This document shows positions 6,451-63,139 of a stretch of 64,000 nt of DNA, in pieces; positions within the stretch are counted from its first letter, which is position 1; each line of letters starts with the position of its first letter. Below the pieces are notes generated by a model. That model saw nothing but the letters and a program-made list of their open reading frames with translations, was not told the origin of the DNA and did not search any database. Made by a program: the position numbers and the translations under genes. The DNA comes from a virus (taxonomy: Duplodnaviria; Caudoviricetes), in IMG/VR virus record IMGVR_UViG_3300009873_000001; one strand, given 5' to 3'.

Positions 6451-7128
6451 TTAACTTTCAGATGACGCCGGCCAATGCTCAGGACAGAACGTCCTCGTCA
6501 CCACGCCCGGCGCCGCTCTCGCCACAATCACGTCCCTCTCTTCAACGAACCGCCCTATCCGCGGAACTGCGTCGAGCACGCTGGGGTCGTGTCCAGCTTC
6601 GCGAATGGCGTCCGTTGCAGCAGCGCGAATCAGCGAGAAGACCTCCGGTCCAGAGTCGCGAGCCAGCTTCGGATTACGGCTCGCGAGGCAGCTCTGGCAG
6701 AGGCGGCTGTGCGGATAGCCTACCGCCATGAACCTGAGCAAGCGGACCGGCGAAGCCGGGAGCGGCGCCTCCCGGCCGCAGAGCGTGCCGAACACCGGAA
6801 TCGTCGGCGGGCTGGCGATTGGATCAGTTGCTTGAGCCACTACGCCAGCCACGAGGTGCCACGGGCCAGGCCAGGCCACCTGTAACGCCATACCCTGCTC
6901 GGGAGCCGCCTGAGCATAGCCCACGTCCTCGTCGACGCGGTCTACGAACCCGCCTAGGCAGCGCGGGCAGGCCGAGAGCTTCCACACGTCGCCGAGCATG
7001 GTGAGCCGCATGCCCGTGGCGGCCCGACGCCCGCTCGGCAGGCGCTTCTGGCAACCGCCCACGCAGCCGACCACTTGCAGCCCGGCCAATCTCGCGACGC
7101 GCCTGGCGCGCTCAAGGTCCATGTCCAT
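6451..7128 (-). CDS. Cys-rich protein with module-B-like N-terminus
   Basis: MDMDLERARRVARLAGLQVV; several CxxC motifs. Confidence 0.6.
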   Translation of the reverse strand: MDMDLERARRVARLAGLQVVGCVGGCQKRLPSGRRAATGMRLTMLGDVWKLSACPRCLGGFVDRVDEDVGYAQAAPEQGMALQVAWPGPWHLVAGVVAQATDPIASPPTIPVFGTLCGREAPLPASPVRLLRFMAVGYPHSRLCQSCLASRNPKLARDSGPEVFSLIRAAATDAIREAGHDPSVLDAVPRIGRFVEERDVIVARAAPGVVTRTFCPEHWPASSES

Positions 7129-8319
7129 GGCTAAGCCGGGCGCCCGTTCAGTTGTGCCAAGGCCGGCTTGAGTAGCGTCAGGGCCTCTTCGTAGCGACCG
7201 GACATGACCATGTCGGCCGCGGCACTGTGAACCTGCACGAGAGCGCGCAGAGCCTCGTCGCGGAGTTTGTTCTCCTGACCTGAGCACCACACGCTACCAC
7301 CGGCCTGCGTGCGGTGTCTGCGTCGCGGGTTCAGCGCGCGCCGACAACCAGGGCACTGCAGCTTCTTGAGCACCCTGAACGCCAGCCGGCTAAGATCGAG
7401 CCACTGCCGGCTCACGGAGGCGCCTGCCCCGCCTTGAGAGCCTTGGCGCAACGCGCAAAATGAGCCGACCAGGCCAAGCACAGCACGGCTAGAACCAACA
7501 ACATGAGCGAATGAGCGCTGGAGCGAATGCCGTCTGAGACAACCAAGAGACCCGACCCCAACGAAAAGGCCAATCCGGCTGTATTGAGGTGCTGCGCCCT
7601 GAAGAGCGCTCGCGCCCTAGCTGCGGGAAAAGGCACGCTCCTTGAGCTGGTGTCTGGCAACTTCAATCAGACGCTCCCTGGCTCGCCGCACGTCGAGCTC
7701 GCTCACATTGCCTTCCGCGTCCTGATAAAAACTCTCGCGCGGAACCGCCTCATGATAGCCGGCTTCTCGGACAGAAAGCCCGAGTCCAAGCCGCGGCGAC
7801 CATGTGACCTGGGCTCGCATGCCGTGGATCGTGAGCGACTGATCTTCCCAGGTAGAAGCGCTTTGCCCGCGGAGCTTCATTGCAGTGCGTCTCCAACTTC
7901 ACCATACCAGTCACTTGCAGGAGCGTCCCGAACACTCCGGGCAAGGCGGCAGTGCCTGGTCGAACGTCACGCGCCGATCGCCAGAGATAAAGCGGTTGAA
8001 CAGATCGAGCTGAACAGCCCTGCCGTGACCGAGGCAGACCGGGCACACCTCCCCGGCTCGCCGCCGCTCCGTCAGCAAGCGCTGAGGATCGCTGGCGGCG
8101 TTGCGTGCCGCGGCTCTCAGCCTCGCGTCCACTAGCGTCGCCCTGGCGGCGGCGGCGGTTCTCTGTAGCAGCTGTCGCAGCGAACCTCGCCGGGCCATGT
8201 GCCATGAGTCAGCGGGCGGAAGTTGCATCCGTTGCTCTGGCAGTGCTCGAGGCGGACCTCGATCGCCTTGAGCAAGAAGTCGAGCTTGATCTTCTTCCTG
8301 ACCGCCTCGTCGATCTCGT

Positions 8320-8574
8320 TCACTCTCCTTCGGTCCCTTCCTCGTTCTTGACCCGCTGATCGGGTGCGCAATAGACCCATTGGCCACCGTCCACCTGCGC
8401 CTCCACGTCATAGTAGAGGTGAGCTCGGACGTTGAATACGGCCTGGCAGTGGCCGCATTCGTAGTTGTCCACGGCCACGTCTATACCGCGCTCGGCCTCC
8501 TCGAATTCGAGCGACTTCTTGCAGCTCGGGCAGAGAAACTCGAGGTCCACGACGGGGCACTTGAGTCTGATCAT
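8320..8574 (-). CDS. zinc-ribbon protein
   Basis: CPSC...CGHC. Confidence 0.65.
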   Translation of the reverse strand: MIRLKCPVVDLEFLCPSCKKSLEFEEAERGIDVAVDNYECGHCQAVFNVRAHLYYDVEAQVDGGQWVYCAPDQRVKNEEGTEGE

Positions 8575-8846
8575 TTCCGACCACCTAAGAAAGGCCGCGC
8601 CGCCCAGGCGAGTCGCTCTTGTTCGTCACATGCCACACATGAGACAAAAGAACTCCTCGCCTGGACGGTGAGCGGTTCGACTTTTCGGGTGCTAGACCTT
8701 ACTTTCCGCAGCTCGTCCTAGAAACAGACGAGGACTGGCCAGTTCCAGGTCTGTTGCATCGGACGAGCCGCGGTGCCGACAAGGCAGTCGAGTCCTTCTG
8801 TGTCGACCCAGATTGCAGAACTCGACCATGAGCTTCCTCCCGCCGG

Positions 8847-10091
8847 TTACCCGACGATCGGTTGCCCCGTTAGTGGATTAGTGGCTATTGGCCCAACAAC
8901 AGGCATGTATGGCCCTGACCCAGGCCCATAGAACAGCCCGAGCGGGCTAGTCGCCGAAGACGTAGACATCAGCTTCATTTGCACGTTCCATTGCGAAGCG
9001 GTGGGCGTGGTGACGGACGTGTTGCCTAGCTCGACCCAGTCCTCCAACACGCTCTGTCCCCACGCGGCCTGCAGTTCTTGCATGCCGGCCAGCTGCGCTG
9101 GCGCGCCCGGCGTAGGCAGCGGCACGACCTTCATGCCAGTACTACTGCCAGTGGCAGGTAGCCAGAACTGCGCGGTCGTGTTGCTGGCCTGCTGTAGATA
9201 GTCGCTCACGCCCTGCAAGGACGGCTTCTTTGCGCGCTCCTTCTTTCGCTCGATCCAGCGCTTGCTCTGGTGGTGCCAGAGCCAGATCGTGGTCAGTGCG
9301 GCCAGCACGAACTCCTCGAGCTTGGCGAGCGCCTGTCTGGGCTTGCCGTCGGCGACGAAACCAGACTCCCAGTACTTCGGAATGTATTCGATCGCCAGGG
9401 CCTTGCCGCGCGACCCGGAGTGGCGCGGGTAGAGCTGCTTCTCGCGCATGTAGTCCGAGGCGCTGAGCATGAGGAGCTGCGGCGCCGGCTGCACGACCTT
9501 CGAGACCGCGCGGTGAATGCTGCCCGCAAAGCCGGTGTCGAACATGAGCGCCTTGCTCCAGTCCGGCACCGGCCAGTTCTTGACCTGGGCTGAGAGCGCC
9601 TTTTCGTTTCCAGCCACCGCGCGACTGACCACTGGATCGAAGACGGTCGTGAGCCGCCTACGCCTCGCCAGAACCTCCCACGCCCACACGTCGCGGCCTG
9701 GCAGGACGAGCATGTCGGCCTCGGCTCGCTCGGAGCGGCGCCGCAGCGATCTGAGGCTGTTCCTGACGATCGAGTGAAGAACCTCAGACCCCTTCGCGTT
9801 GTACTGCGCGCCTAACTCACGCGTCCTGTCGCCAAGGACCAGCTCGCCGTCGAGCGTCTTGCAGATCGCGAGCGCCCTTTCACGAATCGGACTCTTCTTC
9901 GAGAGCACCGACGTCAGCGTGGCGTAGATCAGCGCGGCTTCTTCGTGCTGACAGCAGCTCGCCGGTCGCGTGATTCCGTCGAACGGACGCAGGTCGCCCA
10001 CATAGACCGGGCTGTCCTTGTCCGCGGCGCGCGCCAAGGTCCGAATGCCGGGAATGCAGAAATCCCGAACGTGGCGTCGGAGCCAGCTCAC
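8847..10091 (-). CDS. putative phosphoribosyltransferase-like protein
   Basis: LPGRD...VSR...MFDTGFAGSI resembles the ARDG/SR/DxGxxGS PRTase-like signature. Confidence 0.55.
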   Translation of the reverse strand: MSWLRRHVRDFCIPGIRTLARAADKDSPVYVGDLRPFDGITRPASCCQHEEAALIYATLTSVLSKKSPIRERALAICKTLDGELVLGDRTRELGAQYNAKGSEVLHSIVRNSLRSLRRRSERAEADMLVLPGRDVWAWEVLARRRRLTTVFDPVVSRAVAGNEKALSAQVKNWPVPDWSKALMFDTGFAGSIHRAVSKVVQPAPQLLMLSASDYMREKQLYPRHSGSRGKALAIEYIPKYWESGFVADGKPRQALAKLEEFVLAALTTIWLWHHQSKRWIERKKERAKKPSLQGVSDYLQQASNTTAQFWLPATGSSTGMKVVPLPTPGAPAQLAGMQELQAAWGQSVLEDWVELGNTSVTTPTASQWNVQMKLMSTSSATSPLGLFYGPGSGPYMPVVGPIATNPLTGQPIVG

Positions 10092-10097
10092 GTATCG

Positions 10098-10793: not shown

Positions 10794-10983
10794 GCGCGCG
10801 CCTCAGCAGAGCCTAGTCATACACCGCAAAAACGCGCGACGCAAGATCTCTCACCGGCAGTACAACTCGTCTAGAAATCGCAGGTGCCCGGGACTGCCAG
10901 GCCAGCCCTCAAGCGGACCGGGCGGCTCGCTCGCGCCTTCGGCCTTCTTTGGCTCGTCACTGCCTTCGGGCTCCTCCGGCTCG

Positions 10984-11463
10984 TCATTCATGCGCCCAGC
11001 ACTCCCCACTGTGCCCACGCACCTTCCAGCAGGTCGGACAGTTGCCGGCCTTGGCCCGCTCTGGCATGGGATTGTCCGGCGACGGGTCGCCGCGCTTCCA
11101 TGGATTCTTGCAGCGCACCCCGTTCGCGTCTATGTCCTTGAACATGCGCCGCCAGTCGGTCACGCCCACCGTCGGCTGTATACACGTCGGGATCCTGAAC
11201 GGCTTCCCCTTGGGTATGTTTCGCTGGTAGCGAACCCTCACCGCGCCGTTCTTCCAACGCTTGACCTCCAGCACGCGGATCACCGGATCGTAGAGGTGGT
11301 CCGTGGTCAGCACCACGCGATCCCCTGGTCGCGGATCGATTCGAGGGTCGCGCCCATGGCGAGTCGACCAGGCAACCCACTGAGCCACGACAGCAGGATC
11401 CTCGCTGTTGAGCTTCTGGGAGCCGAGATCACGGACGGCGCGTCTGAATCTGGCGTCGCTCAT
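10984..11463 (-). CDS. module-A-like leader plus RDPRxDPxPGD domain
   Basis: MSDARFRRAVRDLG...RDPRIDPRPGD; paralogue of 34248..34643. Confidence 0.7.
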   Translation of the reverse strand: MSDARFRRAVRDLGSQKLNSEDPAVVAQWVAWSTRHGRDPRIDPRPGDRVVLTTDHLYDPVIRVLEVKRWKNGAVRVRYQRNIPKGKPFRIPTCIQPTVGVTDWRRMFKDIDANGVRCKNPWKRGDPSPDNPMPERAKAGNCPTCWKVRGHSGECWAHE

Positions 11464-18705: not shown

Positions 18706-19206
18706 CTACTTTCCGTCGTCGTAGGGATCGTCAGGGTCGTACTCGATATCGCACGACCCTTGGTGGCCCGGCTTGCGTTCGCAGTAAGTCGGAATGGACC
18801 TGCCAGGAAGCGGCTTTCGACATTGCGTCTGCGGCTCCGGGGAATGGAACGAACACCCGCCGCCACCAGCGTCACGCGGGCGCCCGATATGTCCGGCTTC
18901 CTTCTCGCAACGCGCGCGGCCCTGCACCTTTCCGCAGCGCACGCCCCACCTGAGCGGCTTCCCCACAGGCTCCCCGATCCCTATGAGCCAGTTCTCCAAG
19001 ACCCGGCACCGCTCATTGCGCTCCGCAAGCGAGGCTGGGAGAGGAACCCCGCCTCCGCGCGAGACCCGCTCGTCGGACTCCACCAGCGGGACGCTCGCCA
19101 GCTCGCGCATGGCCTCCAGGGCCCAGCGCTCTGGGCGCGGCACGAGGTCCATGCCGTAGCGCTCGCGCAGCTCGCGGAGCAGCTCTTGCACGCGCGCGTC
19201 AGCCAC
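18706..19206 (-). CDS. module B protein with Cys/His repeats
   Basis: MADARVQELLRELRERYGMDLVPRP...WLIGIG; CEKEAGHIG and CERKPGHQG. Confidence 0.75.
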   Translation of the reverse strand: MADARVQELLRELRERYGMDLVPRPERWALEAMRELASVPLVESDERVSRGGGVPLPASLAERNERCRVLENWLIGIGEPVGKPLRWGVRCGKVQGRARCEKEAGHIGRPRDAGGGGCSFHSPEPQTQCRKPLPGRSIPTYCERKPGHQGSCDIEYDPDDPYDDGK

Positions 19207-19209: not shown

Positions 19210-19638
19210 CTACTCGACGCCCTTTCGCCCAGCCACGCTCTGATCGAGCGCTTTGGCCAGCAGGCGGGCCCTTTCGGCCAGCGTGTGGGCTTGCGCGAGG
19301 TCAGCGTCCTCGAGCAGGTCCCACTGTTCTTCCTTGATCCCGGCGATCTTCTCTACCTGCTTCTTGCGAGCGATCTTCCGCCGATCCTCGTCGGTAGCAG
19401 GGCGGATCGACCACCGCTCGTAGTGACCACCACCGCCGGACTCGTAGGCGTGATCTCCAGCTCGCCAGTAGAACTTCCGAAAGTAAGGGCCAGGCGTCTT
19501 CACTTCGACGTGCCCGGACTTGAGCACGCGCGTAACCTCGCCCAGGCAGTCTGACCGAGCCCAGCCGCCGCGAGAAACTAGCACGGGGTCGCCCGCTTTG
19601 AATGGACACGCGTCCATGTTCTGACCGCGGCGACCCAC
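19210..19638 (-). CDS. phage hypothetical protein
   Basis: FKAGDPVLV... SH3-like start; in gene run. Confidence 0.65.
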   Translation of the reverse strand: MGRRGQNMDACPFKAGDPVLVSRGGWARSDCLGEVTRVLKSGHVEVKTPGPYFRKFYWRAGDHAYESGGGGHYERWSIRPATDEDRRKIARKKQVEKIAGIKEEQWDLLEDADLAQAHTLAERARLLAKALDQSVAGRKGVE

Positions 19639-25894: not shown

Positions 25895-27314
25895 CCCATG
25901 ATCTCCTACACCCAGGTTATGGCCGAGTGCGAGGACAAGAAGGTACTGACAGACCTTCTGCAGAGAGCCGGGCGCGTCGGGAGACTCAGCATGCTGTACG
26001 ACATGGTCACGGTGAGGCCGATCGGCGCAGAAGGTCCGCCTGGCCTCAAACTGACCGGCAGCGTCTATGCGAAGGTAGTGGAGCTGGAGAGGATCGTGCG
26101 CTGGGTCAATGGAGGCGCCTTATGACCACCAGCGTCCGCCCCTCCGAGAACGACTACGCGCGGCAGTTCTTTGAGCTGTACTGCAAGGTCATGGGTGAGC
26201 TGGACAAGCTTGCCGAGCTGGCCAGCTACAACGAGGTCTTTCCGCACCTCGACGAGATCTATTCGCCCGACCGGCACCGCATGGAGTACTTCTTCCACGG
26301 GCTCCTCGGCCTGCTCGATCAGTCCTGGCGGGTCGAAGATCCGTCCTTCTGGCGGGACTACGAGCGGTCAAACTCGCTCATGAGCAGGCTGATCGCCTAC
26401 GGGCGCGAGTGCTTTCAGGAGCACAAGGGCCTGAGCGACGCCCGCTACACGGCTCATGACTTCGAGGTACCCAAAGAGAGCAAGGAGCAGCCATGAGCGC
26501 GTTCGAGAAGTACCTCCAGGACTGCGTTCAAGAGATTGATCCGTCCTGGGCCAAGTCGTGCGCGTTCGTCGTGGGTCGTATGCGCGCAGCGCGCGAGCTA
26601 CACAAGGAACTCTTCGGGGCGGCTGAGCTGCCGGATCCGAAGGTCGTGGTCGAGCTGTACGATCGGCTTCTCGAACGGGTCTATGCCAGCGAGGTCGAGC
26701 CGCGAATGGAAGAGTTCCACCGCTTGGCAGCTGAGCGCGACGCTCTGATGCAACAGCTCACACAGAGGGTTCAAGAGATAGAAGCGCACCTGAAGGCATT
26801 CCCTAGGCCTGCCCCTTCCGGCAAGTCCGACTACCGATGACAGATCCTGATCGCCAGGACGAGCTCGCTGAGGCGCTCACCCAGGCCAACGTGGCAGTCC
26901 TGGCGCTGCAGGCATGCGACGTGGGCTCGGCCACCGCTGCGCTCAGGAAGGCGATTCGCCTCACCACGGGGTCCGAGTTCTGCCAAGTCTGCGGCAACGA
27001 GCCGGCTCCGTTCACGGCCTGCAGCGCGTGCTTCTGGAAGTCGGTAGACGTGGTCGAGTACCTGGACTACTGCAAGAAAAACAAGGCGTGCGTCATGTTC
27101 GGACAGAACACAGTCTACGTCGCCCACCCCGCCACACCAGAGCGGCAAGGCACGACCAGTCTCCTGGCAGCCAGAGCCGGCACGCTCGGCGAAGCCGTGA
27201 ATGGAATCCAGAAGGGCATGGCCACTGTCCTGTCGGTAGAGACGATCAGACAAGTGGGGTTCCTGCACGCGCTCGAGCAAGTTCCGCCGCTGAAGCCCAA
27301 GGAGGGCGACTAGC

Positions 27315-27794
27315 GTGGACGAGGCCCTTCAGCGCGCGCTGCGCGAAGCCGAGCGTGCCGGCATTCGACTGATCGAGTATCCGCCAGAGCTGATCATTGA
27401 CATTCTTCGCCAGCGCCACTCGTCGCTGCCGTTACCACTCGGCGCTCCCAACCAATCACACCTCGACTTCATGCCAATCTTCGAGAAGCACGGTCTGGAC
27501 GGATTCCCAGCCTTGATCATGAAGGTGCGCGAGTGGCTAGTCAGCATTGGCGCGGCCCAGCCTGACAGCTGGGCCGAGGTCGACAAGACCTACGCCGCCA
27601 TGAAAGAAACATTCAATAAGTTCATGGGCCCGTACGTCGACGACGAATTCGGACGCCTGGTGCCAGACCACGAAGCAAGCTCGCCCAAGCTGACGCCAGC
27701 GCAAGCTGAACGCAGACTCAATCGCATGCAGGAAGTCTTGGTTCAGCTCATGACACTCGAAGAACTAGAAAGAAGTCGCGGTAATGGCCAATAG
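27315..27794 (+). CDS. module B protein
   Basis: MDEALQRALREAERAGIRLIEYPP...WLVSIG. Confidence 0.8.
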   Translation: MDEALQRALREAERAGIRLIEYPPELIIDILRQRHSSLPLPLGAPNQSHLDFMPIFEKHGLDGFPALIMKVREWLVSIGAAQPDSWAEVDKTYAAMKETFNKFMGPYVDDEFGRLVPDHEASSPKLTPAQAERRLNRMQEVLVQLMTLEELERSRGNGQ

Positions 27795-27979
27795 CGAAGA
27801 GTTGCTCCAGCTTCTGCGTCAAGGCGTCGAGTTCATGAACGGCTTCGCCAAAGAGGCCGGAGTAGGAAAGATCCCAGCAGCCAAGTTCTGCTACGAGGCC
27901 GGCACCTGGACAGGTCAGGCGCTCAAGGCGATCAGCGAACTTGACGCTGTGGTCAGTGCCGAGCGGTTCAGGGACTGAC

Positions 27980-28372
27980 GTGGACGAGACGCTCCAACGC
28001 GCAATTCGCGAGGCTGAGCGAGCTGGACACCGACTGGTGCCACGCCCGCCTGAGAGCGTACTCACGGCGCTGCGGATCGTAGCGCGCGCGGGCAGCGTAA
28101 TCGCGGAAGCGCTGGTCACCATTGCCATCCAGCTCAAGCGTCCAGGGCAAGACGAGCGCGAGGCGATCTGGAACGAGGCTTGGCGGGGAGGGCTTCGCAA
28201 CTGGCTGGACGCGATCGGCGCCGGATCGCCTGACTGGGACAAGGAAGTTACGTACCCCAAGTCCTCCCACTCTGTCGGGATCGACGACGCCATAGACAGT
28301 GACGAATTCGAAAGGCGCTGGGCCGCACGTCATGGCCACTACCGCGGATACCACCCAGCCCTGGAGGATTGA
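27980..28372 (+). CDS. module B protein
   Basis: GTG start; MDETLQRAIREAERAGHRLVPRPP...WLDAIG. Confidence 0.8.
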   Translation: MDETLQRAIREAERAGHRLVPRPPESVLTALRIVARAGSVIAEALVTIAIQLKRPGQDEREAIWNEAWRGGLRNWLDAIGAGSPDWDKEVTYPKSSHSVGIDDAIDSDEFERRWAARHGHYRGYHPALED

Positions 28373-34261: not shown

Positions 34262-34643
34262 GCGCGTCTTCCGGCGCGCGCTCCTCGGCCATGCGCACGA
34301 CTTCTCCGTGGCGGGTCCGACGACGCCAAGTCTCAATGCTGCAGAGCGTGAAGCGCGGGTGATAGCAGAAGCCAGCGCCGTCTTCGGGTCCGTAGAGCCA
34401 AAGAACTCTGCCCCAGAGAACCTCCACGATCTCGCCTTGCTCGTTTTCAATGATCTTGCGCACAAACCGCGTGAACCGCTCGGGTCTGGCATGCGGCACG
34501 ATCTCTGTGCGCACGACGTCGCCAGGAACGGGATCTAGCCGCGGATCGCGCAGCCGGAGAAGCCCTGCACGCCAGCGACGCCGCGCTTCACGGTCGCCAG
34601 CTCTAGCACGGCGCTCGAGGTCGCGCAGACCCGCGTCGCTCAT
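34248..34643 (-). CDS. module A plus RDPRxDPxPGD domain protein
   Basis: MSDAGLRDLERRARAGDREA...RDPRLDPVPGD. Confidence 0.8.
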   Translation of the reverse strand: MSDAGLRDLERRARAGDREARRRWRAGLLRLRDPRLDPVPGDVVRTEIVPHARPERFTRFVRKIIENEQGEIVEVLWGRVLWLYGPEDGAGFCYHPRFTLCSIETWRRRTRHGEVVRMAEERAPEDAPSDA

Positions 34644-34849
34644 TCACACAGCGGCTTGTCGCGCGGCTTGCCTATGAGCGCCAGCCACCGCCTGGCCTCT
34701 TGCGCGCCTTCACGGCCCTGGGTGGTGTAGTCATGCGTGTTGTTGAGTGCGGCCCACAAGAACCGCAACGCCTCGTCGTCCGGCCTGGGCACGAGCAGTT
34801 GCCCGGCGCGCTCAGCCTCGCGCACAGCTCTCTGAACACGCTCGTCCAT
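34640..34849 (-). CDS. module B protein (alternative GTG start at 34927)
   Basis: MDERVQRAVREAERAGQLLVPRP...WLALIG. Confidence 0.7.
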   Translation of the reverse strand: MDERVQRAVREAERAGQLLVPRPDDEALRFLWAALNNTHDYTTQGREGAQEARRWLALIGKPRDKPLCE

Positions 34850-35194
34850 GTTGGCACCGATCATCCAGTTGGAAGGATTTTGCGGATCGTGATAGAAGGT
34901 CGGAATCGCTACGACGTAAAGGGTCACGACGCCGGCCTGCGCTCGTCCATGACTCCCGAGCCGCACTTCGGACAGCGCTGAGAGGCCAGCTGGAACTGCC
35001 TCCCCTTCCAGCCGCAGAACTCGCACTCCTTGCGCTGAGCCGGCCCGCGCGGCCAGGCGCTCAGGTCTTCGAGCGCTGCGCAGGTCGTGGTCTCGTGCCA
35101 GTCGCGGCAGGGCGTCGTGGGGCAGACCCAGACCTGCTTGTTCGCGGAGATCATGCAATCCGAGCAGCACATGGACGTGACCGACGAGCAGACG

Positions 35195-35788
35195 CTACAC
35201 GGGGCTGGCATGGGCAGCGACGCTCTTGTCGAGCCTGACCGTGAAGGCACGTATCGGCGGTTGCCCAGGGATCGGGTGCGGCATGGGCGGGCCGTCCTCG
35301 AACGCCTCCACAGCGTACTTGGACACGATCTTGAGCGACCCGTCTGGAGTGGGTGTGATCGTCGCCAGCAGGACCCCGTCTCGCTCCTGGACCTCGCAGA
35401 CGTCCACGTCTCGGATCTCATGCCGCCTGGCCACGAACTTCAACGGCAGGAGGACCGGAGCAGACAGCCGAAGGCCAGACGAAGCTGCACCGGTCGTGCA
35501 GGCTCCGCCGTCGTCCAGCTCCGGGTTGTTGGCCGCGCCTTGGAGGTCGGGCTTTTCGCGCGCAGTCAGCATGTCTTCGATCTGCTTCTTCGTGGCCTCC
35601 ACGTCCGGCCTGAGCGCGAGCGAGTTCATGATCGGCTTGCCGGTGGCCGGATCGTTGACCACGATCCGCGTGTAGCCGGACCCGGCCATGCCGTAGGTGT
35701 TCGGGCCGAACTGCGCTATGCACCGTTCCTGCTCGTCGCGCAGGGTGTGATAGCCCTCGCCGTCGTGACTCCACTGAAAACCGGCCAT
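35195..35788 (-). CDS. hypothetical protein
   Basis: GGAGG RBS; TAATG overlap with the methyltransferase stop. Confidence 0.7.
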   Translation of the reverse strand: MAGFQWSHDGEGYHTLRDEQERCIAQFGPNTYGMAGSGYTRIVVNDPATGKPIMNSLALRPDVEATKKQIEDMLTAREKPDLQGAANNPELDDGGACTTGAASSGLRLSAPVLLPLKFVARRHEIRDVDVCEVQERDGVLLATITPTPDGSLKIVSKYAVEAFEDGPPMPHPIPGQPPIRAFTVRLDKSVAAHASPV

Positions 35789-36726
35789 TAGGCCTCCTTC
35801 CACCGAGCGAGCGCGCGTTCGGCGCGCTTCCGGTCACGTTCCACACCGACCGCTGAGATGCCGAGCCGCTTGGCGACGACCGCGGTCTGGCCGGCGCCTA
35901 GGAAAGTATCTAGCACGACCTGTCGCTCTCCGCGCGCGGCAAGCCCGGCGCAGCCAGACACCTTCAGACAGCGCTCCACGAGTTCGGCTGGATACTCGTA
36001 GTCGTGGGCCTTCTTCTTGGTAGCGCCGGTAGTTTCATAGCCCACGACCCACACATCCCCACCGCAGCGGAGATTTCCGTTCTTCCCTCGAGTCCCTCTG
36101 GTCAGATTCGACTGATCCGCGAACGGCACGCCTACCGCCAGCCGGTCCAGCTCCGGCTCACCACCAAGAGCGGTCGGCTTGAAGGCCGTGAACAAGTGCT
36201 CCCAGGAGTAGTTGAGCAGGTTCGGGCTGTTCAGCGGCTGGCAGTGCCCACGGCAAGGTTGTCCAGGACCAGGCGAGTAACTCTTCACCCACGCGATCTG
36301 CTGGTGGGCGACCAGCGCGTCGTCCATGCCCAATGACCCGTTCAGGAAGCCGGAGAACGCCTTCCACGGGCGCAAGAAGTCTTCGCGAAGCTGGCCGAAG
36401 TTGAAGAACACCCAGGCGCCCGGCACGAGCGCGCGGTGTGCGAACTCGCCCACGGTCTGCATGAGCTCGTGATCGAACCCGTCGGCCTTCTTGTACGGCG
36501 GGCTCGTGACGAGCACGTTGGCCGCGCCGCCCTCTAACCAGCTCGAATCCCAGACCTCGCGCACGTCAGCTAGTGCGATCATGATGTTGAGATCGCCTTG
36601 CTGAGCTTCAAGGATCTCGAGCCGCGGATCACGCAGGCGAAGGAGACCTGCGCGCAAGCGCTGTTGCGCCTCGCGGTCGCCGGCTTTAGCACGGCGCTCA
36701 AGTTCTCGTAGGCTTGCGTCGCTCAA
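35788..36726 (-). CDS. beta-class N4-cytosine/N6-adenine DNA methyltransferase with N-terminal module A
   Basis: VTSPPY precedes VLDTFLGAGQT. Confidence 0.88.
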   Translation of the reverse strand: MSDASLRELERRAKAGDREAQQRLRAGLLRLRDPRLEILEAQQGDLNIMIALADVREVWDSSWLEGGAANVLVTSPPYKKADGFDHELMQTVGEFAHRALVPGAWVFFNFGQLREDFLRPWKAFSGFLNGSLGMDDALVAHQQIAWVKSYSPGPGQPCRGHCQPLNSPNLLNYSWEHLFTAFKPTALGGEPELDRLAVGVPFADQSNLTRGTRGKNGNLRCGGDVWVVGYETTGATKKKAHDYEYPAELVERCLKVSGCAGLAARGERQVVLDTFLGAGQTAVVAKRLGISAVGVERDRKRAERALARWKEA

Positions 36727-40435: not shown

Positions 40436-41143
40436 TCACGCGACCTCCACGACCTGGATCTCGTTCGTGATCGTATAAGCGTCGTTCAAGATCGCCGCGT
40501 TGACGAACTGCACGCCGCGTCCTGCGATCTTCCGCACCTCTTCGCCAGCGCCTGGGTGAATGTGGCCGAAGACGTGCAGCTTGAGCTTCTTCAAGGCCGG
40601 CAAGCGCTCGGTGAGATACTTGCACCCGACTGGCCCGCGCTCGACCTCGTCGCGGATCCCGTAGGGCGGACCGTGGGTGACGAGCACGTCGGTGTCTGCG
40701 GGGATCTTCTCCCAGCAACGCCTGGCATGAGCCCGCGCCCTGGCTGGATTCTCGACCGGCCGCGGGAAGTTGAAGGCCCACGCGAAGAACCACGGCGTCC
40801 AGGGCGAGCCGTAGAACTTGAGCCCGTCGATTTCAGCCGCTTCGTCCTGCAGCACGACCGCGTGAGTCAGGGCCTTCCGGCAGTCCGCTTCGCGCCGTTC
40901 GAAGGCGTAGTCGTGATTCCCGCCCACGACCACGACGAACTTGTATCCCACCGAGTGCTTCAGGTCGCCTAGAAACTCGTTGAACTGCGCGAGCTCGACG
41001 ACCTGGTGCTCGGCCTCCAGCTCAGGCTGAGCCGGGCCGTAGACGGACCGCAGTAGATCGCCGGCCAGCACGAGCCCGTCGGCCTTGGGGTAGTTCAAGG
41101 CGTCCCACTGCCCATGAATGTCGCTAGCCAAGGCCAGACGCAC
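40436..41143 (-). CDS. calcineurin-like metallophosphoesterase
   Basis: SDIHG, AGDL, GNHD, THGPP, GHIH. Confidence 0.92.
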   Translation of the reverse strand: MRLALASDIHGQWDALNYPKADGLVLAGDLLRSVYGPAQPELEAEHQVVELAQFNEFLGDLKHSVGYKFVVVVGGNHDYAFERREADCRKALTHAVVLQDEAAEIDGLKFYGSPWTPWFFAWAFNFPRPVENPARARAHARRCWEKIPADTDVLVTHGPPYGIRDEVERGPVGCKYLTERLPALKKLKLHVFGHIHPGAGEEVRKIAGRGVQFVNAAILNDAYTITNEIQVVEVA

Positions 41144-46148: not shown

Positions 46149-47183
46149 ATGAAAACACCCGGAAGGCCGTCCTCCGAACACCTTTTGCCAGCCGCTCTTC
46201 CGCCGCCGCTCCCTGTCGCGAAACCTGGCGAAGATTTCGCGCGCCTCGCGCCAGAGATTCGCGAGAACACGAGCGTCTACGTGCGCTCGTCCTTGGCCGA
46301 GGGCACGCTCAAGAACTACGAGAGCGACTGGAGAACCTTCGCCGCCTGGTGCGAGCGCCAATCCGTTTCCAAGCTCCCTGCCGAAACCAAGGTGATCGCA
46401 GCGTACTTGGCCGACCGGGCCGAGTCCGGCTGCAGCGTGAGCACGATCAGAGGCGACCTGTGCGCGATCACCCACGCGCACGAGCTGGCCGGCTTCCCGC
46501 TGCCCTCGAAGGACGGCGCAATCAGAGCGGTCATGCGCGGCATTACGAGAAAGGTCGGCACGAGGCCGAAGAAGAAGGCGCCCGTCGCGGCTGGCGATCT
46601 CGCGGCAGCGATCGTCCGCAGAACCGCGACCGGCACGACGACGGCGATACGAGACCGCGCGATCTTGCTTCTGGGATTCCTGGGCGGCTTCCGACGCAGC
46701 GAGCTCGTGGCCATTCACATGGAGCACATCGTCGCGGACCCCAAGAACCGCGGATTGAAGATCCTCATTCCGCGCTCCAAGACAGACCAGGCCGGCGAAG
46801 GGCGGTGGGTCGTCGTGTTGCGCGGCAAGCGCGGGGCGCCGTGTCCTGTAGAGGCCCTTCACGCCTGGCTGACCGTCTCTGGTATCACCGAAGGGCCGGT
46901 GTTCCGCTCGATCAAGAACGGGCAGCTGGGCAAGCGCGCCCTGTGCGCCAAGTGGGTCGAGCGCATTGTGAAGGACGTGGCCCAGGAAGCCGGACTCGAC
47001 GCAAGGGCCTACGCCGCGCACTCGCTGCGCTCTGGGTTCGTGACGACCTCGAGAGCCAAGGGCCACTCGCTTGAAGCTATCGCTCGTCAGTGCGGGCACA
47101 AGGACCTCAAGACAACGCTGGGCTACGTGCAGTTCTCGGGCGACCACTTGTTCGAGGACAACGCTTCAGAAGGACTGCTCTAG
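46149..47183 (+). CDS. tyrosine recombinase/integrase (Cre-like)
   Basis: N-terminal core-binding domain; RRSEL, SKTD, HSLRSG, GH, catalytic Y (LGYV). Confidence 0.95.
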   Translation: MKTPGRPSSEHLLPAALPPPLPVAKPGEDFARLAPEIRENTSVYVRSSLAEGTLKNYESDWRTFAAWCERQSVSKLPAETKVIAAYLADRAESGCSVSTIRGDLCAITHAHELAGFPLPSKDGAIRAVMRGITRKVGTRPKKKAPVAAGDLAAAIVRRTATGTTTAIRDRAILLLGFLGGFRRSELVAIHMEHIVADPKNRGLKILIPRSKTDQAGEGRWVVVLRGKRGAPCPVEALHAWLTVSGITEGPVFRSIKNGQLGKRALCAKWVERIVKDVAQEAGLDARAYAAHSLRSGFVTTSRAKGHSLEAIARQCGHKDLKTTLGYVQFSGDHLFEDNASEGLL

Positions 47184-51889: not shown

Positions 51890-52153
51890 ATGATCCGCCC
51901 AGGTTCGCGCTGGCGGCACTGGAAGGGCTACCTCGTGACGGTTCTGTGCGTGGCCACGCACACAGAGTCCGCGGAGGAGCTGGTGATCTACAGGAAGGAC
52001 TCCGACCCGCCTGGCATGCCGCCGCGGGCTAGGCCGCTGGTCATGTGGCTCGACAACGAGACTACGACCGGCGAGCAGCGGTTCGTGCCGATCGGCGCTC
52101 CCGTCGACAAGCAGGAGCTCGCGCGACTGCTGAGCCAGGGCGCGGCGTTGTAA
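51890..52153 (+). CDS. DUF1653-family protein
   Basis: WRHWKG...VATHTES..LVIYR...ARP. Confidence 0.75.
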   Translation: MIRPGSRWRHWKGYLVTVLCVATHTESAEELVIYRKDSDPPGMPPRARPLVMWLDNETTTGEQRFVPIGAPVDKQELARLLSQGAAL

Positions 52154-52728
52154 TGGACGAAGAACTCCGTAAGGCCATGCGCGTGCTTGACAGAGCTGGG
52201 ATGCGATTAGCCCCAACGCCGCCTGACTATCTGGTCCGCGAGCTTTCTCTTTTTGTGAAGAAGTACACGGAGAGCGAAAGTTACCACTTCGTCAGGTCAC
52301 CCAAGAAGTTTGCCGCAGAGTTAGCGAAATGGCTGACCGAGAGCGGTATAGACTGGAGGCGCCCGCCCAAGCCCAAGCCAGCCCCGAAACCGGTTCCTCA
52401 AAGAGCCGAAGATCTCTCTCTGCGTGCTGTGCGCGCACTATGCGAAGTCGTGCATGCCGTAACTGGACGGCGCCCTTATTGGCCACCCAGGTGGTCTCCA
52501 GAAGTAGAAGCCGAGTGGTGGGCGTGGCTGTCAAGGAACGTGTCAGCTGTGAGGCTGCGCAGCTACAGAAACTGCGGCTTAGGCACCGTCGAGGAAATAC
52601 GAAGTTTCATGGCACGCCGCGGGCTGGAATTGAAAGACAGCCTCTGCCAAGACAGCGGAGAAGAGCCACCGCATAACTGTGCGTGGTGGTTTGAGGCGAC
52701 CGACATGCCCGAAGCTGAAGGCTTATAA
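52153..52728 (+). CDS. module B protein with RNA polymerase alpha-CTD-like C-terminus
   Basis: MDEELRKAMRVLDRAG; LSLRAVRAL...RNCGLGTVEEIRSFMARRGLEL. Confidence 0.7.
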   Translation: MDEELRKAMRVLDRAGMRLAPTPPDYLVRELSLFVKKYTESESYHFVRSPKKFAAELAKWLTESGIDWRRPPKPKPAPKPVPQRAEDLSLRAVRALCEVVHAVTGRRPYWPPRWSPEVEAEWWAWLSRNVSAVRLRSYRNCGLGTVEEIRSFMARRGLELKDSLCQDSGEEPPHNCAWWFEATDMPEAEGL

Positions 52729-55257: not shown

Positions 55258-55272
55258 CTCTCTACAGGAGTT

Positions 55273-56455: not shown

Positions 56456-56460
56456 TTCAG

Positions 56461-56533
56461 GGGTCCGTAGTTCAACAGGCAGAACCTTCGGCTTTTAACC
56501 GAAACTGTGGGCGTTCGAGTCGCCTCGGACCCA
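56461..56533 (+). tRNA. tRNA-Lys(UUU)
   Basis: Acceptor GGGTCCG/CGGACCC; anticodon arm TTCGG-CTTTTAA-CCGAA; T-loop TTCGAGT. Confidence 0.92.
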
Positions 56534-58567: not shown

Positions 58568-58824
58568 GCGACGAGCGGTTGAGGCGCGCTGAGCAAGCAG
58601 CCCGCGAAGGCGGGCCAGAAGAGAGCGCGGCCTATCTGCGCGAACTCATACGAGCTGGGCGAATCGACCCAGCAGCTGTGAAGATAGCCGCATTCTGCGG
58701 TCTCACGTCGGCTTCCATGGCGATCGAATGGCAGCCAGCACACGAACCTGGGGTGTGTGCCTGCCCTTTTGCTTCCTCCCAGACGGCGGGAATTTTCGTG
58801 CTTGGCTACGCAAGAACGTCATGA
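58564..58824 (+). CDS. module A protein (nearly module only)
   Basis: MSDERLRRAEQAAREGGPEESAAYLRELIRAG...AAFCG. Confidence 0.75.
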   Translation: MSDERLRRAEQAAREGGPEESAAYLRELIRAGRIDPAAVKIAAFCGLTSASMAIEWQPAHEPGVCACPFASSQTAGIFVLGYARTS

Positions 58825-58846
58825 ACTTCGTGCTCGGAGACTACGC

Positions 58847-59236
58847 GTGGATCGCCGCCTGAGAGAACTCGAACGCCTGGCAGAGACGGGTGACGCCGCG
58901 GCGAAAGAGCGACTCAAGCTCAAGCGCGACCGCGCCGGCCGGCCGGTCTTCACGCGCGACACCATGCCCGCCGGCTTGCGTTGCAGGGTGAAAGAAAACC
59001 TCTGCGCTCCGCACGGCTATGGCGCGGGCAGCTGGCCACCGCGATTCGTTCAGGCCGGGTCGCTCGTCGCGATCATAGGTCCGCGCAACACCGAGCGGCA
59101 CGGAAAACACAAGCGCCAGCAGTGGTACGACGTGGAGGTCTTCGGCAAGGCCGGCAACGTGATCGGTCGCACGTACCTTCCCAGCAACTGGCTCGAACCG
59201 GAGATCCCGTGGACGACGAACTCCAACGCGCCTTGA
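58847..59236 (+). CDS. module A protein with SH3-like region
   Basis: GGAGA RBS; MDRRLRELERLAETGDAAAKERL. Confidence 0.75.
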   Translation: MDRRLRELERLAETGDAAAKERLKLKRDRAGRPVFTRDTMPAGLRCRVKENLCAPHGYGAGSWPPRFVQAGSLVAIIGPRNTERHGKHKRQQWYDVEVFGKAGNVIGRTYLPSNWLEPEIPWTTNSNAP

Positions 59237-59406
59237 GGGTCCTGCGGCAGGGCGGACTGAGCATGCTCGCGTCGCTCGATCTCTTGCGGCTCCAGAAAGC
59301 GAAGGTGGAAGCTGCGAGGGGATCTGAGTGGCGGCTTCGAGCCGCTCGAGGTCGCGCTGGAATACCAGGCCAGAAGACCGCCCGCACGCGTGAGCTCGCG
59401 CTATGA
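59209..59406 (+). CDS. short module B protein
   Basis: GGAG RBS; MDDELQRALRVLRQGG. Confidence 0.6.
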   Translation: MDDELQRALRVLRQGGLSMLASLDLLRLQKAKVEAARGSEWRLRAARGRAGIPGQKTARTRELAL

Positions 59407-59770
59407 ATTCGAGGCCGAAAGAGCTACAGACGTTCCGCAACGAGGCCGCGGCGGCTCTGGCTGGGCTGCAATCGTCCGACCAGCCGTCGAACACCCCAGA
59501 GGGGCATGAAACCTCCATTCAACACGACCGGTTGCTAAAGCTCGTCAAGGATCTTGAGCGCGTGCTACCGCGTCAGGATTCTCGCTACCGCTTGCGCGTC
59601 GAGTGCATGGGCTGCCCTGAGCGCTGCGAGCACTCGCGCCGAAAGGCGGTCGTCCACTGGAATCACGCCCACGGCTTGTGGCTGTGTGTGTGTTGCAACA
59701 ACAACGGCCACTGGTCTGTCGACGACTTTGACGAACAGGCTGACGTCGACCAAAAAGGAGAGCCTTCACC

Positions 59771-60307
59771 ATGGTGAATGACAATCCGACGCAGGTCCCT
59801 GAATCGCCAGCTACAGAGCACACCGACGAGCTGCTGAACGAGTACGTGCGCTGGATGACGGACCATATCGACCAGAAAGGCATGCAGCCCTTCGGTTGGT
59901 CGCGCTGCAAGAACGACAACAAACGCGAAGTGTTCTTTCTCGCCGTTGGCCCAGAAGACTCGGCCCGGCTCTTCTGGCAGACGGTCGGCATGACGCCGCC
60001 CGACAAGCAACGCCAGGAGGTGCTCTGGGGCTGGGACATGACCACACTTCCCGGCCAAGGGACTGAGTTCGCCGACGCCTACGTGTTCGTGCATTGGGCG
60101 CGGGTCTTCGGCAAGAAGCTCGCATGCCCGGAGGCCTTCAGGATCGGCGTGATCAACTACCAGCACGAGCCACGAATCGTGCGGCCGGTCGACTGGAGCA
60201 ACCAGCACTGGACGCAATGGGTGCGCGGTTTCTTGGGCCAGCACCACCCGCCGTTCCTGATGCACTTCACGGACAAGGAAGAGGCCGCAGCACGAGGGAC
60301 TGAATGA
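59771..60307 (+). CDS. phage hypothetical protein
   Basis: WGWDMTTLPGQGTEF...IGVINYQ. Confidence 0.7.
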   Translation: MVNDNPTQVPESPATEHTDELLNEYVRWMTDHIDQKGMQPFGWSRCKNDNKREVFFLAVGPEDSARLFWQTVGMTPPDKQRQEVLWGWDMTTLPGQGTEFADAYVFVHWARVFGKKLACPEAFRIGVINYQHEPRIVRPVDWSNQHWTQWVRGFLGQHHPPFLMHFTDKEEAAARGTE

Positions 60308-60710
60308 CCAAAGCCGTTTTCGAAGAACTCGTGAGCCGCTTCACGCCGTTCAAGCGCTACAAAGCCCGCACCCCTGACAGGTGCTGCTTGCTGAAATGCA
60401 CCCGCAGAATCGAGCGCGGCGACTTCGCCTTCAAGCCCACCAAGAACACGGGCGGATACACAAAAGAGGCGCGAATCTGCGACCCTTGCGGCCAGGTCCT
60501 AGCCATGGTGCAAGTATGACGCTCGAAGAGATCGAGGCCAAGGCGCGTCGCGGCGAGCCGGTCACGCCCGAAGAGGCGCTCTGGCTGATCTCCAAGCTCA
60601 AGAGCACCGAGGCCCGCGTGCAGGCCGAGGCCGAGCGAGCCGAAGAGTACCGCATGGCCGAGGTCTATAGTTTTTGCGCCGAAGCGGCGCGCAGGAAGCG
60701 AGGGAGCTGA

Positions 60711-61001
60711 ATGACAGATCACACCGTCGACCGCAAGAGGTTTCCCCACGAGCACAGCGACTGCTACGTGTCGGATCTCATGATCTGCGAGTCTGCCGCC
60801 GGCTACTACCTGGGCCGCATGTGCCAGGACAAGGAAGACGGCTTCGTGGAGCCGTACTCGCGCGAGAGCGACTACTTCGCTTCAAAGACAGAAGCGCGCG
60901 CGGCGCTGGCTGCTGGCTTCGAGGTCCGCGACTGTGTCGAAAATCAGCACGGCTATGCGACAGGCGCACTGCCCCCACCGCACCAGCCCGAGGACAACTG
61001 A
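60711..61001 (+). CDS. phage hypothetical protein
   Basis: SAAGYYLG...PYSRES.YF. Confidence 0.75.
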   Translation: MTDHTVDRKRFPHEHSDCYVSDLMICESAAGYYLGRMCQDKEDGFVEPYSRESDYFASKTEARAALAAGFEVRDCVENQHGYATGALPPPHQPEDN

Positions 61002-61002
61002 C

Positions 61003-61515
61003 GTGAAGATCGTGAGCGGCGGCCAGACCGGCGCCGACCGCGGCGCGCTAATCGCAGCCAAGCGGCTCGGCGTGTCTTACGGAGGGTGGATACCGCGCGG
61101 TCGCAGGGCCGAGGACGGGGTCATTCCGTTCGAGTTCGACCAACTTCAGGAGCACCCCAGCTCTGACTACCCGCCGCGCACCTACGCCAACGTGCGCGAC
61201 AGCGACGGCACGCTCCTGATCGCCCGACTTCCGCTTCGAGGCGGGTCTGACCTGACCCTGAGCTACGTGCGCGAACTCGACAAGCCGGTGTTCAGGCTCG
61301 ACGCCCAGACCGTCCTCGACACAGACGAGCACGCCTTTTTGGTATCGTCCCTGATCGAATGGACGACCGAGCAAGGAATCAAGACCCTGAACGTGGCCGG
61401 CTCCAGGGAGAGCAGCGTCAAGGGGCTGCAGGGCGCCGTGGCCGGCCTGATCATGAGGTTCCTGCGTGAGCGATCAGCGCCAACGCCAGCTCGAGCGCCA
61501 GGCGCGCCTCGGTGA
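61003..61515 (+). CDS. SLOG-superfamily cpYpsA ('putative molybdenum carrier') protein
   Basis: IVSGGQTGADRGAL...RTYANVRDSDGTL...LNVAGSRES. Confidence 0.88.
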   Translation: MKIVSGGQTGADRGALIAAKRLGVSYGGWIPRGRRAEDGVIPFEFDQLQEHPSSDYPPRTYANVRDSDGTLLIARLPLRGGSDLTLSYVRELDKPVFRLDAQTVLDTDEHAFLVSSLIEWTTEQGIKTLNVAGSRESSVKGLQGAVAGLIMRFLRERSAPTPARAPGAPR

Positions 61516-61867
61516 CAAGCAGGCCGCGCGGGCCGCGGAGCGCGGGCAAGAGCGCGTCAGCGGCCCTGGCGTGAAGCTCAAAGCTCTAGCTGAGCTGATC
61601 TACGCCAGCACGGGGCCGGCGGCAGGCGAAGAAACGCCTTGGGGATACCTGCAATCCGCCCACGCCAGGCTCACAGCTTGGTGCGAGGGCGGCCCGCACA
61701 AGAAGCAGCTACGCTGGGCGGCTGACGACCTCAAGAAGGCCGAGACCTCCATTTCCTACTACAGCCACGACTGGCCCTCTTCGTGGGGCGCGCACCAGCG
61801 CGCTTCGGCGGCGTTCTGGGAAGTCCTGCGCGGCTTGCAAGACATACTAGCGGAGTGCCGTACATGA
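61466..61867 (+). CDS. module A protein
   Basis: MSDQRQRQLERQARLGDKQAA. Confidence 0.75.
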   Translation: MSDQRQRQLERQARLGDKQAARAAERGQERVSGPGVKLKALAELIYASTGPAAGEETPWGYLQSAHARLTAWCEGGPHKKQLRWAADDLKKAETSISYYSHDWPSSWGAHQRASAAFWEVLRGLQDILAECRT

Positions 61868-62065
61868 GCGGCGAGCTCACGTCCGAGGCCTGTGCTGCTA
61901 GAGGTCACGATTTTGTTCGCTATTTCGACGCCAACGACGATATTGGCCTTCGTTGCGGCTGGTGCGACTTCTGGGTCAACGCTGACGAGACGGGCTTGTG
62001 GAACGAGGAGACTGGCAAGCGTCACTCGGAGTCCGAAGAAGCCGAAGTGGAGCCAGAGGCAGGCA

Positions 62066-62494
62066 ATGACCACCACCGATCTTGACAACAACCCGGAGGA
62101 GGCCGAGGGCGAGCTGGAAGAGACCGAGGAGGAGCTGCACTCCTTCAAGGCGCTCATACCGAAGCAGCTCTACCACGACATACTCGAGAACTCGGCCAAG
62201 AACGGGATCGACCACCAGGACCTCTTCGCGCACCTGATCTCGGAAGGCTGGCGCGCTCGCTGCGAAGGATTCAGCCGCCCAATCCGAAAGATCCAGCACG
62301 GCGTGAAGGTGCGCTTCGTCCTCGAGCGCCCGACCGGCACCATGTCCGACCTGGCCAGCGTGGTCATGCCCGAGGTGCCAGTGGCCGGCGAGAGCGTCTC
62401 GCTCCACGACAAGAACTACACCGTGAGCCGGCGCGCCTGGTGGTTCTCGAAAGATCTGAAGCCCGAAGCGATCGTCTGCGTAAAAGAGTACTAG
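62066..62494 (+). CDS. hypothetical protein
   Basis: MTTTDLD...; in gene run. Confidence 0.65.
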   Translation: MTTTDLDNNPEEAEGELEETEEELHSFKALIPKQLYHDILENSAKNGIDHQDLFAHLISEGWRARCEGFSRPIRKIQHGVKVRFVLERPTGTMSDLASVVMPEVPVAGESVSLHDKNYTVSRRAWWFSKDLKPEAIVCVKEY

Positions 62495-62695
62495 GCGGCC
62501 TAGTGGGCTACGACCGCAAGCGCGCCAACAAACACCGCACGAACCACAAGCGCTGCCCGGCTTGCAAGAAGCTCAGGCGCTACCGAGATCACAATTCGTG
62601 GCGATCCCGCGGCAATCCGACAGCCCTAGGGCAGTGGGCGCTGGGCCCAGACGGCCACCTGATCTGTCCGACGTGCGCACAGAAGGGAGAGGCAA

Positions 62696-63139
62696 GTGGA
62701 CGAAGTGCTGCAGCGAGCGCTGAAGGAGCTTGAGCGCTCTGGGCGCCAGGTCGTCACCAGGCCGCCGCCAGACGTGATCAAGATACTGCGCGAGGCAGCT
62801 GCTAGAGCCGTCGTTGTAAACCCGAGCCTCGCTACGAGTCTGGCTGATTGGCTCAAAGAAAATGACCTCCAGGGCACCGGGTGCGTCATCTGCGACGCTG
62901 GTCAGCCAGCTCCAATGCACGGCTGCGTGGGCTACCTTGGCCCGACAGGTTTGCAACACCTGACCGGCCACCCCGGGCCGACTGGAGTCCAAGGCATGCC
63001 GGCTCCAGTGCCCCACGTTCACCCCAGCCAGGCCTTCCCAGCCCAGCCCAAGAAAGAGTCTGTGATCCGCACCTTCGCAGACCAGCGTTACGCCAAGCCG
63101 CAACAACAGCACAAGCCGAGGCTTAGGCGACGCCCGTAA
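62696..63139 (+). CDS. module B protein with short Gly-X-Y stretch
   Basis: MDEVLQRALKELERSGRQVVTRPPP; GYLGPTGLQ..GHPGPTGVQGMP. Confidence 0.75.
   Translation: MDEVLQRALKELERSGRQVVTRPPPDVIKILREAAARAVVVNPSLATSLADWLKENDLQGTGCVICDAGQPAPMHGCVGYLGPTGLQHLTGHPGPTGVQGMPAPVPHVHPSQAFPAQPKKESVIRTFADQRYAKPQQQHKPRLRRRP

Follow-up and report, generated by a model that had tools for sequence, protein, structure and literature searches.

Module B, a predicted three-helix N-terminal domain on small proteins with unrelated tails in a multigene family of large uncultured viruses

Module B genes in the window

Module B is the name used here for an N-terminal element that recurs on small proteins encoded by a 64-kb stretch of viral DNA (Duplodnaviria; Caudoviricetes; IMG/VR virus record IMGVR_UViG_3300009873_000001), hereafter the window; the sole sequencing run containing this DNA is an activated-sludge metagenome, and protein cluster look-ups assign the window proteins to a 273,580-bp JGI contig. 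An earlier note on this DNA had described the element as a shuffled domain on about eight proteins. A family hidden Markov model (HMM) of 33 sequences, from which 59209 and 7128 were left out, was run against the 1257 six-frame open reading frames (ORFs) of the window and identified six of them (27315+, 27980+, 34849-, 52153+, 62696+ and 19206-) at E-values of 1e-14 to 1e-26; the same ORFs were scored with an earlier HMM covering the first 40 residues of the module. A degenerate DNA motif pattern matches four of the copies, with none expected from 100 shuffles. The copies, named by their start positions, are as follows.

27315..27794, plus strand: module B protein of 159 amino acids (aa), with a GTG start and an AGGAGG ribosome-binding site (HMM E 1.6e-21)
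27315-27569, plus strand: module of the 27315 protein, helices 2 and 3 being separated by 36 inserted residues, followed by an acidic, helical tail
27980..28372, plus strand: module B protein of 130 aa, module at 27980-28237 (HMM E 7.7e-26)
34640..34927, minus strand: module-only protein, module from its ATG at 34849 to 34652, 69 aa to the stop (HMM E 3.5e-19)
52153..52728, plus strand: module B protein of 191 aa, module at 52153-52365, then a PKPKPAPKP linker and a 110-aa tail (HMM E 6.7e-20)
62696..63139, plus strand: module B protein of 147 aa, GTG start behind a GGGAGAGG site, short module at 62696-62884 (HMM E 2.5e-22)
18706..19206, minus strand: member of clade B', 166 aa, opening MAD-x-R-V-Q-E-L-L-R-E-L-R-E-R-Y-G, module at 18955-19206 (HMM E 2.5e-23)
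59209..59406, plus strand: copy of 65 aa, degenerate or truncated, recognisable in helix 1 only (residues 1-12, E 0.0094)

The translations at 27315(+), 27980(+), 34849(-), 52153(+), 59209(+) and 62696(+) open M/V-D-E/D-x-L/V-Q/R-R/K-A, in agreement with the MDExLQRALREAERAG opening reported for these six starts. The count of about eight proteins holds for six full members; 59209(+) matches over residues 1-12 only, is devoid of both the LVPRPP connector and the WL motif, and has an ambiguous codon-position G+C (0.76/0.53/0.68). Two further ORFs had been listed as looser versions. One of them, 7128(-), is a Cys-rich ORF of 225 aa (6451..7128) that drops out of the family, with a negative family HMM score and an E-value of 0.65 with the first-40-residue HMM; its start, MDMDLERARR, resembles the module superficially only, and Pfam yields weak zinc-ribbon hints. 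The other, 19206(-), belongs fully to the family (E 2.5e-23), in a distinct sister clade with seven members, and the label of looser version does not apply to it.

The module B family is real, protein-coding and under purifying selection, in the module as well as in the tails. When the DNA of the copies is aligned, similarity begins exactly at the start codon, the upstream DNA is unrelated and many of the differences are synonymous, so that the constraint lies on the protein and not on regulatory sequence. Across four orthologous pairs, the ratio of non-synonymous to synonymous substitution rates (dN/dS) is 0.17-0.28, and it is 0-0.3 within the first 35 module codons; for instance, it amounts to 0.17 for 27315 against its ortholog L002 (84% DNA identity), 0.28 for 27980 (orthologs P0004 and L003) and 0.19 for 62696 (orthologs L001/P0008 and P0010), the P and L numbers being given to relatives outside the window. 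Past codon 35, the tails of 27315, 62696 and 27980 have dN/dS values of 0.14-0.42.

Several copies lie close behind other genes. The 27980 gene, a near-tandem paralog of 27315, starts with a GTG placed 1 nt past the stop of a 64-aa gene (27784-27978), and this start site is confirmed by the ATG that its ortholog has there. The ATG of 52153 overlaps the stop of the DUF1653 gene at 51890-52153 (TAATG), and the GTG start of 19206(-) stands 3 nt past the stop of 19210-19638(-).

Module anatomy and predicted fold

Module B is 55-90 aa long and extends past the approximately 24 residues of the opening motif, as is seen from the module-only protein 34849 and from the alignments. It consists of an amphipathic helix 1 (residues 3-14; consensus M-D-E-x-L-Q-R-A-L-R-E-A-E-R-A-G), a rigid connector (G16-x-[R/K]-[L/V]-[V/I]-P-x-P23-[P/S]), helix 2 (residues 25-37) and helix 3 (residues 43-59), which ends in W55-L-x-x-[I/F/L]-G60; the insert that separates helices 2 and 3 measures about 5 to 45 residues. 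The six downstream WL motifs pointed out earlier are all present, and their Trp is found in 31 of the 33 sequences of the wider family. Three residues (R14, G16 and P23) never vary across the three clades of the family, which are otherwise 20-40% identical, and three more (D2, R10 and W55) are almost invariant. The predicted local distance difference test (pLDDT) score of the AlphaFold2 model is 66.6 with 6 sequences and 82.3 with the 33-sequence alignment, the connector being confidently placed, and module B is accordingly modelled as an independently folding domain.

This domain was compared with a broad set of libraries. Scans of all members and 10 relatives against Pfam, NCBIfam and PHROGs gave no family, and a PDB sequence profile search gave a best E-value of 0.51 to an irrelevant entry. 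Structure searches with the module B model remained at noise level, with a best E-value of 1.9 for Foldseek against the PDB and a best Z of 4.1, to generic helical hairpins, for VIA-align wide; BFVD likewise returned noise (best E 0.9), and the ESM Atlas contained no usable match. As far as the predicted model allows, module B is novel in sequence and fold and previously undescribed. The earlier note had let its proposal depend on a significant alignment and on the lack of correspondence to an already characterised domain; the alignment is significant (E <= 1e-14), and no library entry matches the module.

Three more specific identities were tried and rejected. The TIGR02996 repeat-companion domain, a lead from its ...ADWLEExGDP... 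motif, gave no match to its NCBIfam model at E <= 10 in 10 module A/B proteins (module A being another N-terminal element of the same genome, discussed below). An adenovirus-protease-like site in W-L-x-x-I-G fits 19206 (L-I-G-I-G) alone. A reading of LVPRPP as an SH3/WW ligand fails as well, in that the segment is confidently packed in the model and no ligand class consensus fits it.

Three short helices bearing several conserved arginines (R10, R14, R/K18 and R22) might be taken as a helix-turn-helix (HTH)-like DNA-binding domain, in which case the family would be one of small transcription regulators; small N-terminal DNA-binding domains are common in phage regulators. However, an HTH has a fixed turn, with which a link of about 5 to 45 residues between helices 2 and 3 cannot be reconciled, and the conserved arginines of helix 1 stand amid an equal number of conserved acidic residues. 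No Pfam or NCBIfam HTH family matches the module, and among the fold-search matches, all of them weak, no HTH chain stands out. An HTH-like DNA-binding role is held to be highly improbable.

Alternatively, module B may be a homo- or hetero-oligomerisation domain, an option already raised in the earlier note, in which helices would pair between copies and mixed oligomers would gather differing tails. The best look-alikes of residues 22-66, although weak, are helical-hairpin dimerisation domains (SGTA, 4god, Z 3.7; Siah-interacting protein, 2a26, Z 3.5), the predicted template modelling (pTM) score of the monomer is only 0.53, and many co-encoded paralogs share one conserved surface. Nevertheless, Z-scores of 3.7 and 3.5 are at noise level for helical proteins, helix 1 comprises only 12 residues with no heptad coiled-coil pattern, and the monomer model is compact and confident. 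An oligomerisation domain is regarded as a live but less likely rival of the docking handle discussed below.

A helical wheel of helix 1 places residues 5, 8, 9 and 12 in a hydrophobic stripe and R10 and R14 on the opposite side. Judging from this helix geometry, R10 and R14 would be exposed, and their placement fits a conserved interaction surface common to all paralogs. In the 27980 protein (27941-28372 and 28020-28080), the insert between helices 2 and 3 is a hydrophobic segment of about 19 residues, ...A-G-S-V-I-A-E-A-L-V-T-I-A-I-Q-L..., that is kept in P0004 and L003 and might form an additional buried helix or act on membranes.

Relatives, copy number and age

A search of 1.84 billion representative proteins with the family HMM gave 29 matches at E <= 1e-3, including four proteins encoded by the window itself and a false positive, P0024, that matches in the WL segment. 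None of the 29 is named in any source, and the profile match begins at residue 1-3 in nearly all of them. The 273,580-bp contig of the window also carries two of the matches, P0009 and P0017; with these copies outside the window, counted via cluster look-ups, and with the degenerate copy included, at least nine copies are present there. Other contigs carry pairs of members (P0004 and P0005; P0006 and P0013; P0015 and P0031), and the family is multicopy in every virus that has it.

A pattern scan of JGI metagenome contigs yielded six true members, five in one sample and one in another, whereas a further candidate, L007, proved to be a chance out-of-frame reading of a mycobacterial gene. A homologous-protein search with the family alignment returned three proteins, all already known, and no further members. 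Pattern scans of IMG/VR for B and B' gave 0 matches, and those of 185,579 species-representative genomes gave 12, all of them chance out-of-frame readings of one mycobacterial gene. The family appears from these scans to be restricted to one clade of uncultured large viruses.

The tree of the family resolves into three clades, namely B-proper (23 rows), the 19206-like clade B' (7 rows) and an 'E-R-M-G-V-R-V-V' clade (6 rows); members of the latter two typically end in repeated C-x4-[G/A]-H-x-G-x-H knuckles, of which P0026, a relative of the B' clade, has up to four. The six metagenome members are one-to-one syntenic orthologs of distinct window paralogs, and each paralog is joined to its ortholog with high support, as in the case of 19206 and P0012 (support 100/97). 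Since each pairs with its own ortholog elsewhere, the paralogs predate the divergence of these viruses. Moreover, the tail of each paralog is retained in its ortholog from other viruses. The sequence comparisons point to an old, stable multigene family and not to ongoing module recombination; the description of the domain as shuffled was not borne out, in view of tails that have no relatives elsewhere in the window and that stay with their paralogs among orthologs.

The 27315 and 27980 pair was also compared with other viruses. On another contig, the two genes adjoin, as P0004 and P0005. In a comparison of L003 (1647-2479) with the window (27291-27981), the flanks of the 27315 gene align at 70-75% and the interval equivalent to 27315 gives no DNA alignment; the 27315 paralog in the L003 virus is much more diverged or has been replaced.

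Tails of the module B proteins

Behind the module, the tails are Cys/His zinc knuckles, proline-rich or basic stretches, small helical segments or absent, and they are unrelated to one another and to every other ORF of the window. Differing C-termini had been noticed before, and this observation survives for the mutually unrelated tails, for the Cys/His knuckles and for the module-only protein 34849; the alpha-CTD and collagen assignments do not. As for the former, the C-terminal domain of the RNA polymerase alpha subunit, the 52153 tail matches no Pfam family at E <= 1 and no PDB chain at E <= 10. The 62696 tail combines a CxxC...HxC knuckle with a small number of imperfect G-x-y triplets, and its C-terminus is basic; its match to the collagen family PF01391 (E 0.063, 13.5 bits against a cut-off of 27.2) is interrupted, and the segment is mostly deleted in the ortholog L001. 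The 19206 tail has Cys/His knuckles, including C-x4-GH-x3-C.

The sole tail element that recurs is a C...GHxGxC knuckle at the ends of 19206 (B') and 11463 (module A). In 11463(-), the protein ends in C-x2-C-x4-G-H-x3-C (10984-11040), and in 19206(-) in C-x4-G-H-x3-C (18706-18790). This spacing recalls CCHC zinc knuckles; a Pfam match to zf-CCHC was obtained for neither of the two knuckles.

Properties of the tails bear on the idea that the proteins are an ordinary paralogous family in which the three-helix domain itself acts as the effector, perhaps as a small protein that binds or inhibits a host protein, and the tails are fast-evolving and largely dispensable. Multigene families of small proteins that interact with the host are common in large viruses. 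In line with this idea, 34849 is module-only here, in contrast to its tailed relative P0007, the tails are short, at 44-120 aa, partly low-complexity and without a known domain, and the strongest purifying selection falls on the module (34849 against L005: dN 0 in the first 35 codons, dN/dS 0.66 in the rest). However, purifying selection on the tails of 27315, 62696 and 27980 (dN/dS 0.14-0.42) shows that these are not junk, and many tails contain ordered Cys/His knuckles that are conserved across viruses. With evidence on both sides, an effector module with dispensable tails is held to be a live rival, somewhat less likely than the docking handle discussed below.

The 34849 gene

The start of the 34849(-) gene differs between gene callers, with a protein of 95 aa according to Logan and of 176 aa according to JGI. 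The true start is probably the GTG at 34927, located 26 codons upstream of the module ATG and giving 95 aa in total; in the sequence GTGA, this start codon and the stop of the preceding gene overlap. Compared with L005, the 26-codon leader has 7 synonymous and 4 non-synonymous changes and thereby evolves as coding sequence in the module frame. Because this leader probably precedes it, the module of 34849 is not at the extreme N-terminus. The leader (34850-34927, minus strand; V-T-L-Y-V-V-A-I-P-...-W-M-I-G-A-N) is conserved in L005 and recognisable in P0007; its last residue is N here and R or G in relatives, which gives no support for a conserved Asn cut site. Within the module, the first 35 codons differ from L005 by 0 non-synonymous and 11 synonymous changes, and dN/dS is 0.66 in the remainder. 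P0007 bears a Cys/His tail, which 34849 is without.

Upstream, an 82-aa zinc-ribbon ORF (34924-35172, minus strand; CxxC...CPxC; weak Pfam DZR match, E 0.011) sits in another frame between the gene at 35195-35803(-) and the module B gene, and its TGA stop runs into the GTG that is the probable start of the latter (GTGA). It is conserved in L005, with mismatches at its own third codon positions. The upstream similarity between the gene-caller extensions of 34849 and P0007 belongs to this zinc-ribbon gene in another frame. At the other end, the stop of 34849 and the ATG of the module A gene 34643(-) overlap in the sequence ATGA (34640-34645), whereby one B gene and one A gene are translationally coupled.

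Relation to module A

Modules A and B occur in the same genome, both in N-terminal position and with similar openings, and their genes are intermingled, in some cases with translational coupling (34849 to 34643); behind both, Cys/His knuckle tails occur that resemble each other. Module A opens M-S-D-A-x-L-R-E-L-E-R-R-A-x-A-G-D. Even in the closest pair, it has no G-x-x-LVPRPP, and the W-L-x-x-I-G helix is lacking. Profile-profile alignment of A and B with hhalign was not significant (probability 7.5% over 10 columns and 9.5% over 55 columns). When B N-termini were scored with the module A HMM, their mean was 7.1 bits and that of composition-matched shuffles 1.8 bits; this weak excess lies in the opening helix and comes from sequences that are not independent, with a best single empirical P of 0.001. 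The opening M-[S/A]-D-x-x-hydrophobic-[R/Q]-x-x-x-R that is common to A and B may reflect a distant common origin or a convergent helix N-cap. The common origin of A and B suggested earlier is not demonstrated by the hhalign probabilities of 7.5% and 9.5%.

Possible functions of module B

A docking handle is the tentatively favoured function: module B is possibly a common handle by which differing tails are docked onto one shared putative partner. Candidates for this partner are a hub of viral assembly or replication and a single protein of the host; binding would proceed via the face of helix 1 opposite the hydrophobic stripe, with the invariant Arg10 and Arg14, and via the proline connector, and the individual activities would be supplied by the tails. 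The docking handle is favoured because it joins the N-terminal position, the shared invariant polar residues, the unrelated tails, the multicopy state and the purifying selection on module and tails. Several observations weigh against it. Module B is far larger than known address peptides, and neither a conserved cleavage site nor a disordered linker follows it; 34849 is approximately the module alone and several tails are short and of low complexity, so the module itself may be the functional part. In addition, the exposure of R10 and R14 comes from helix geometry and not from coordinates, with intramolecular salt bridges being equally possible, and the module B genes are spread across four transcription blocks amid accessory genes, none beside recognisable structural genes.

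The capsid targeting sequence (CTS) of phage T4 is a conserved N-terminal address on otherwise diverse viral proteins (PMC3012670, PMC9026906). Like module B, the CTS of IPI-III and Alt is a multicopy N-terminal element common to proteins of one virus with unrelated, fast-evolving remainders (PMC9026906, PMC3012670). In contrast, the CTS is an unfolded propeptide of 10-19 residues removed by the prohead protease gp21, whereas module B is a predicted folded three-helix domain of 55-90 residues and has no sequence similarity to the CTS. By analogy with T4, module B could be a virion-cargo address that is cut off by a maturation protease and loads small DNA-binding or zinc-knuckle proteins into the particle. 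Its N-terminal position on diverse small proteins, often basic or Cys/His-rich, agrees with such a role, and L9-R10-E11 matches, by sequence alone, the L/I-x-E form of the T4 gp21 site (PMC9026906). However, a folded domain of 55-90 aa is set against a propeptide of 10-19 aa (PMC9026906), conservation runs 45 or more residues past the putative E11 cut with no conserved cleavage motif after the domain, the residue that ends the 34849 leader varies (N here; R or G in relatives), and the genes do not lie in a structural gene block. A cleaved cargo address is therefore decidedly improbable.

The encapsulation peptides of bacterial microcompartments (BMCs) are also N-terminal amphipathic helices, and they give diverse proteins a common destination (PMC12339742, PMC4594438). 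They consist of a single short helix with a disordered, poorly conserved linker (PMC12339742), whereas module B has an invariant G16...P23 connector and two more conserved helices; BMC shell genes were not seen near the module B genes.

The docking handle can further be set beside cellular-type adaptors, although module B differs from these families in having no detectable relative in domain or structure libraries and in being found in a bacterial-type virus. The BTB, F-box and ankyrin adaptor families of poxviruses and giant viruses have, as module B does, many paralogs with a conserved N-terminal interaction domain and variable remainders. The BTB, F-box and ankyrin domains have known partners and can be recognised as adaptor folds of cellular type.

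Should module B prove to be a docking handle, it would be a new portable protein-protein interaction domain and would illustrate how dozens of small accessory proteins are organised in a very large, poorly understood bacterial virus, and its partner would point to a central hub in the biology of that virus. A broader and improbable extension is that modules A and B form two classes of folded address domains in a giant tailless bacterial virus, each directing a set of small proteins, such as zinc knuckles, basic tails and enzymes, to its own viral destination, for instance the particle or a replication/assembly factory. Such a system would represent a domain-based, two-channel analogue of the T4 CTS that could be reused to load foreign cargo. 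Whatever its function, the module B family is a clean and rare marker for recognising its viral clade in metagenomes, and its description is now freed of several over-readings, namely an alpha-CTD mimic, a collagen tail, a copy at 7128, recent shuffling and proven A/B homology.

Other genes of the window

The window has a G+C content of 64% and consists of densely packed small genes in four alternating strand blocks, and most of its proteins are without a Pfam family. The recognisable genes include the following.

35788-36726: N6/N4 DNA methylase
40436-41143: metallophosphatase
51890-52153, plus strand: DUF1653 protein (Pfam E 4.7e-10), directly upstream of the module B gene 52153(+)
46149-47183, plus strand: tyrosine recombinase/phage integrase (Pfam PF00589, E 8e-12, with a SAM-like N-domain), located where the strand switches

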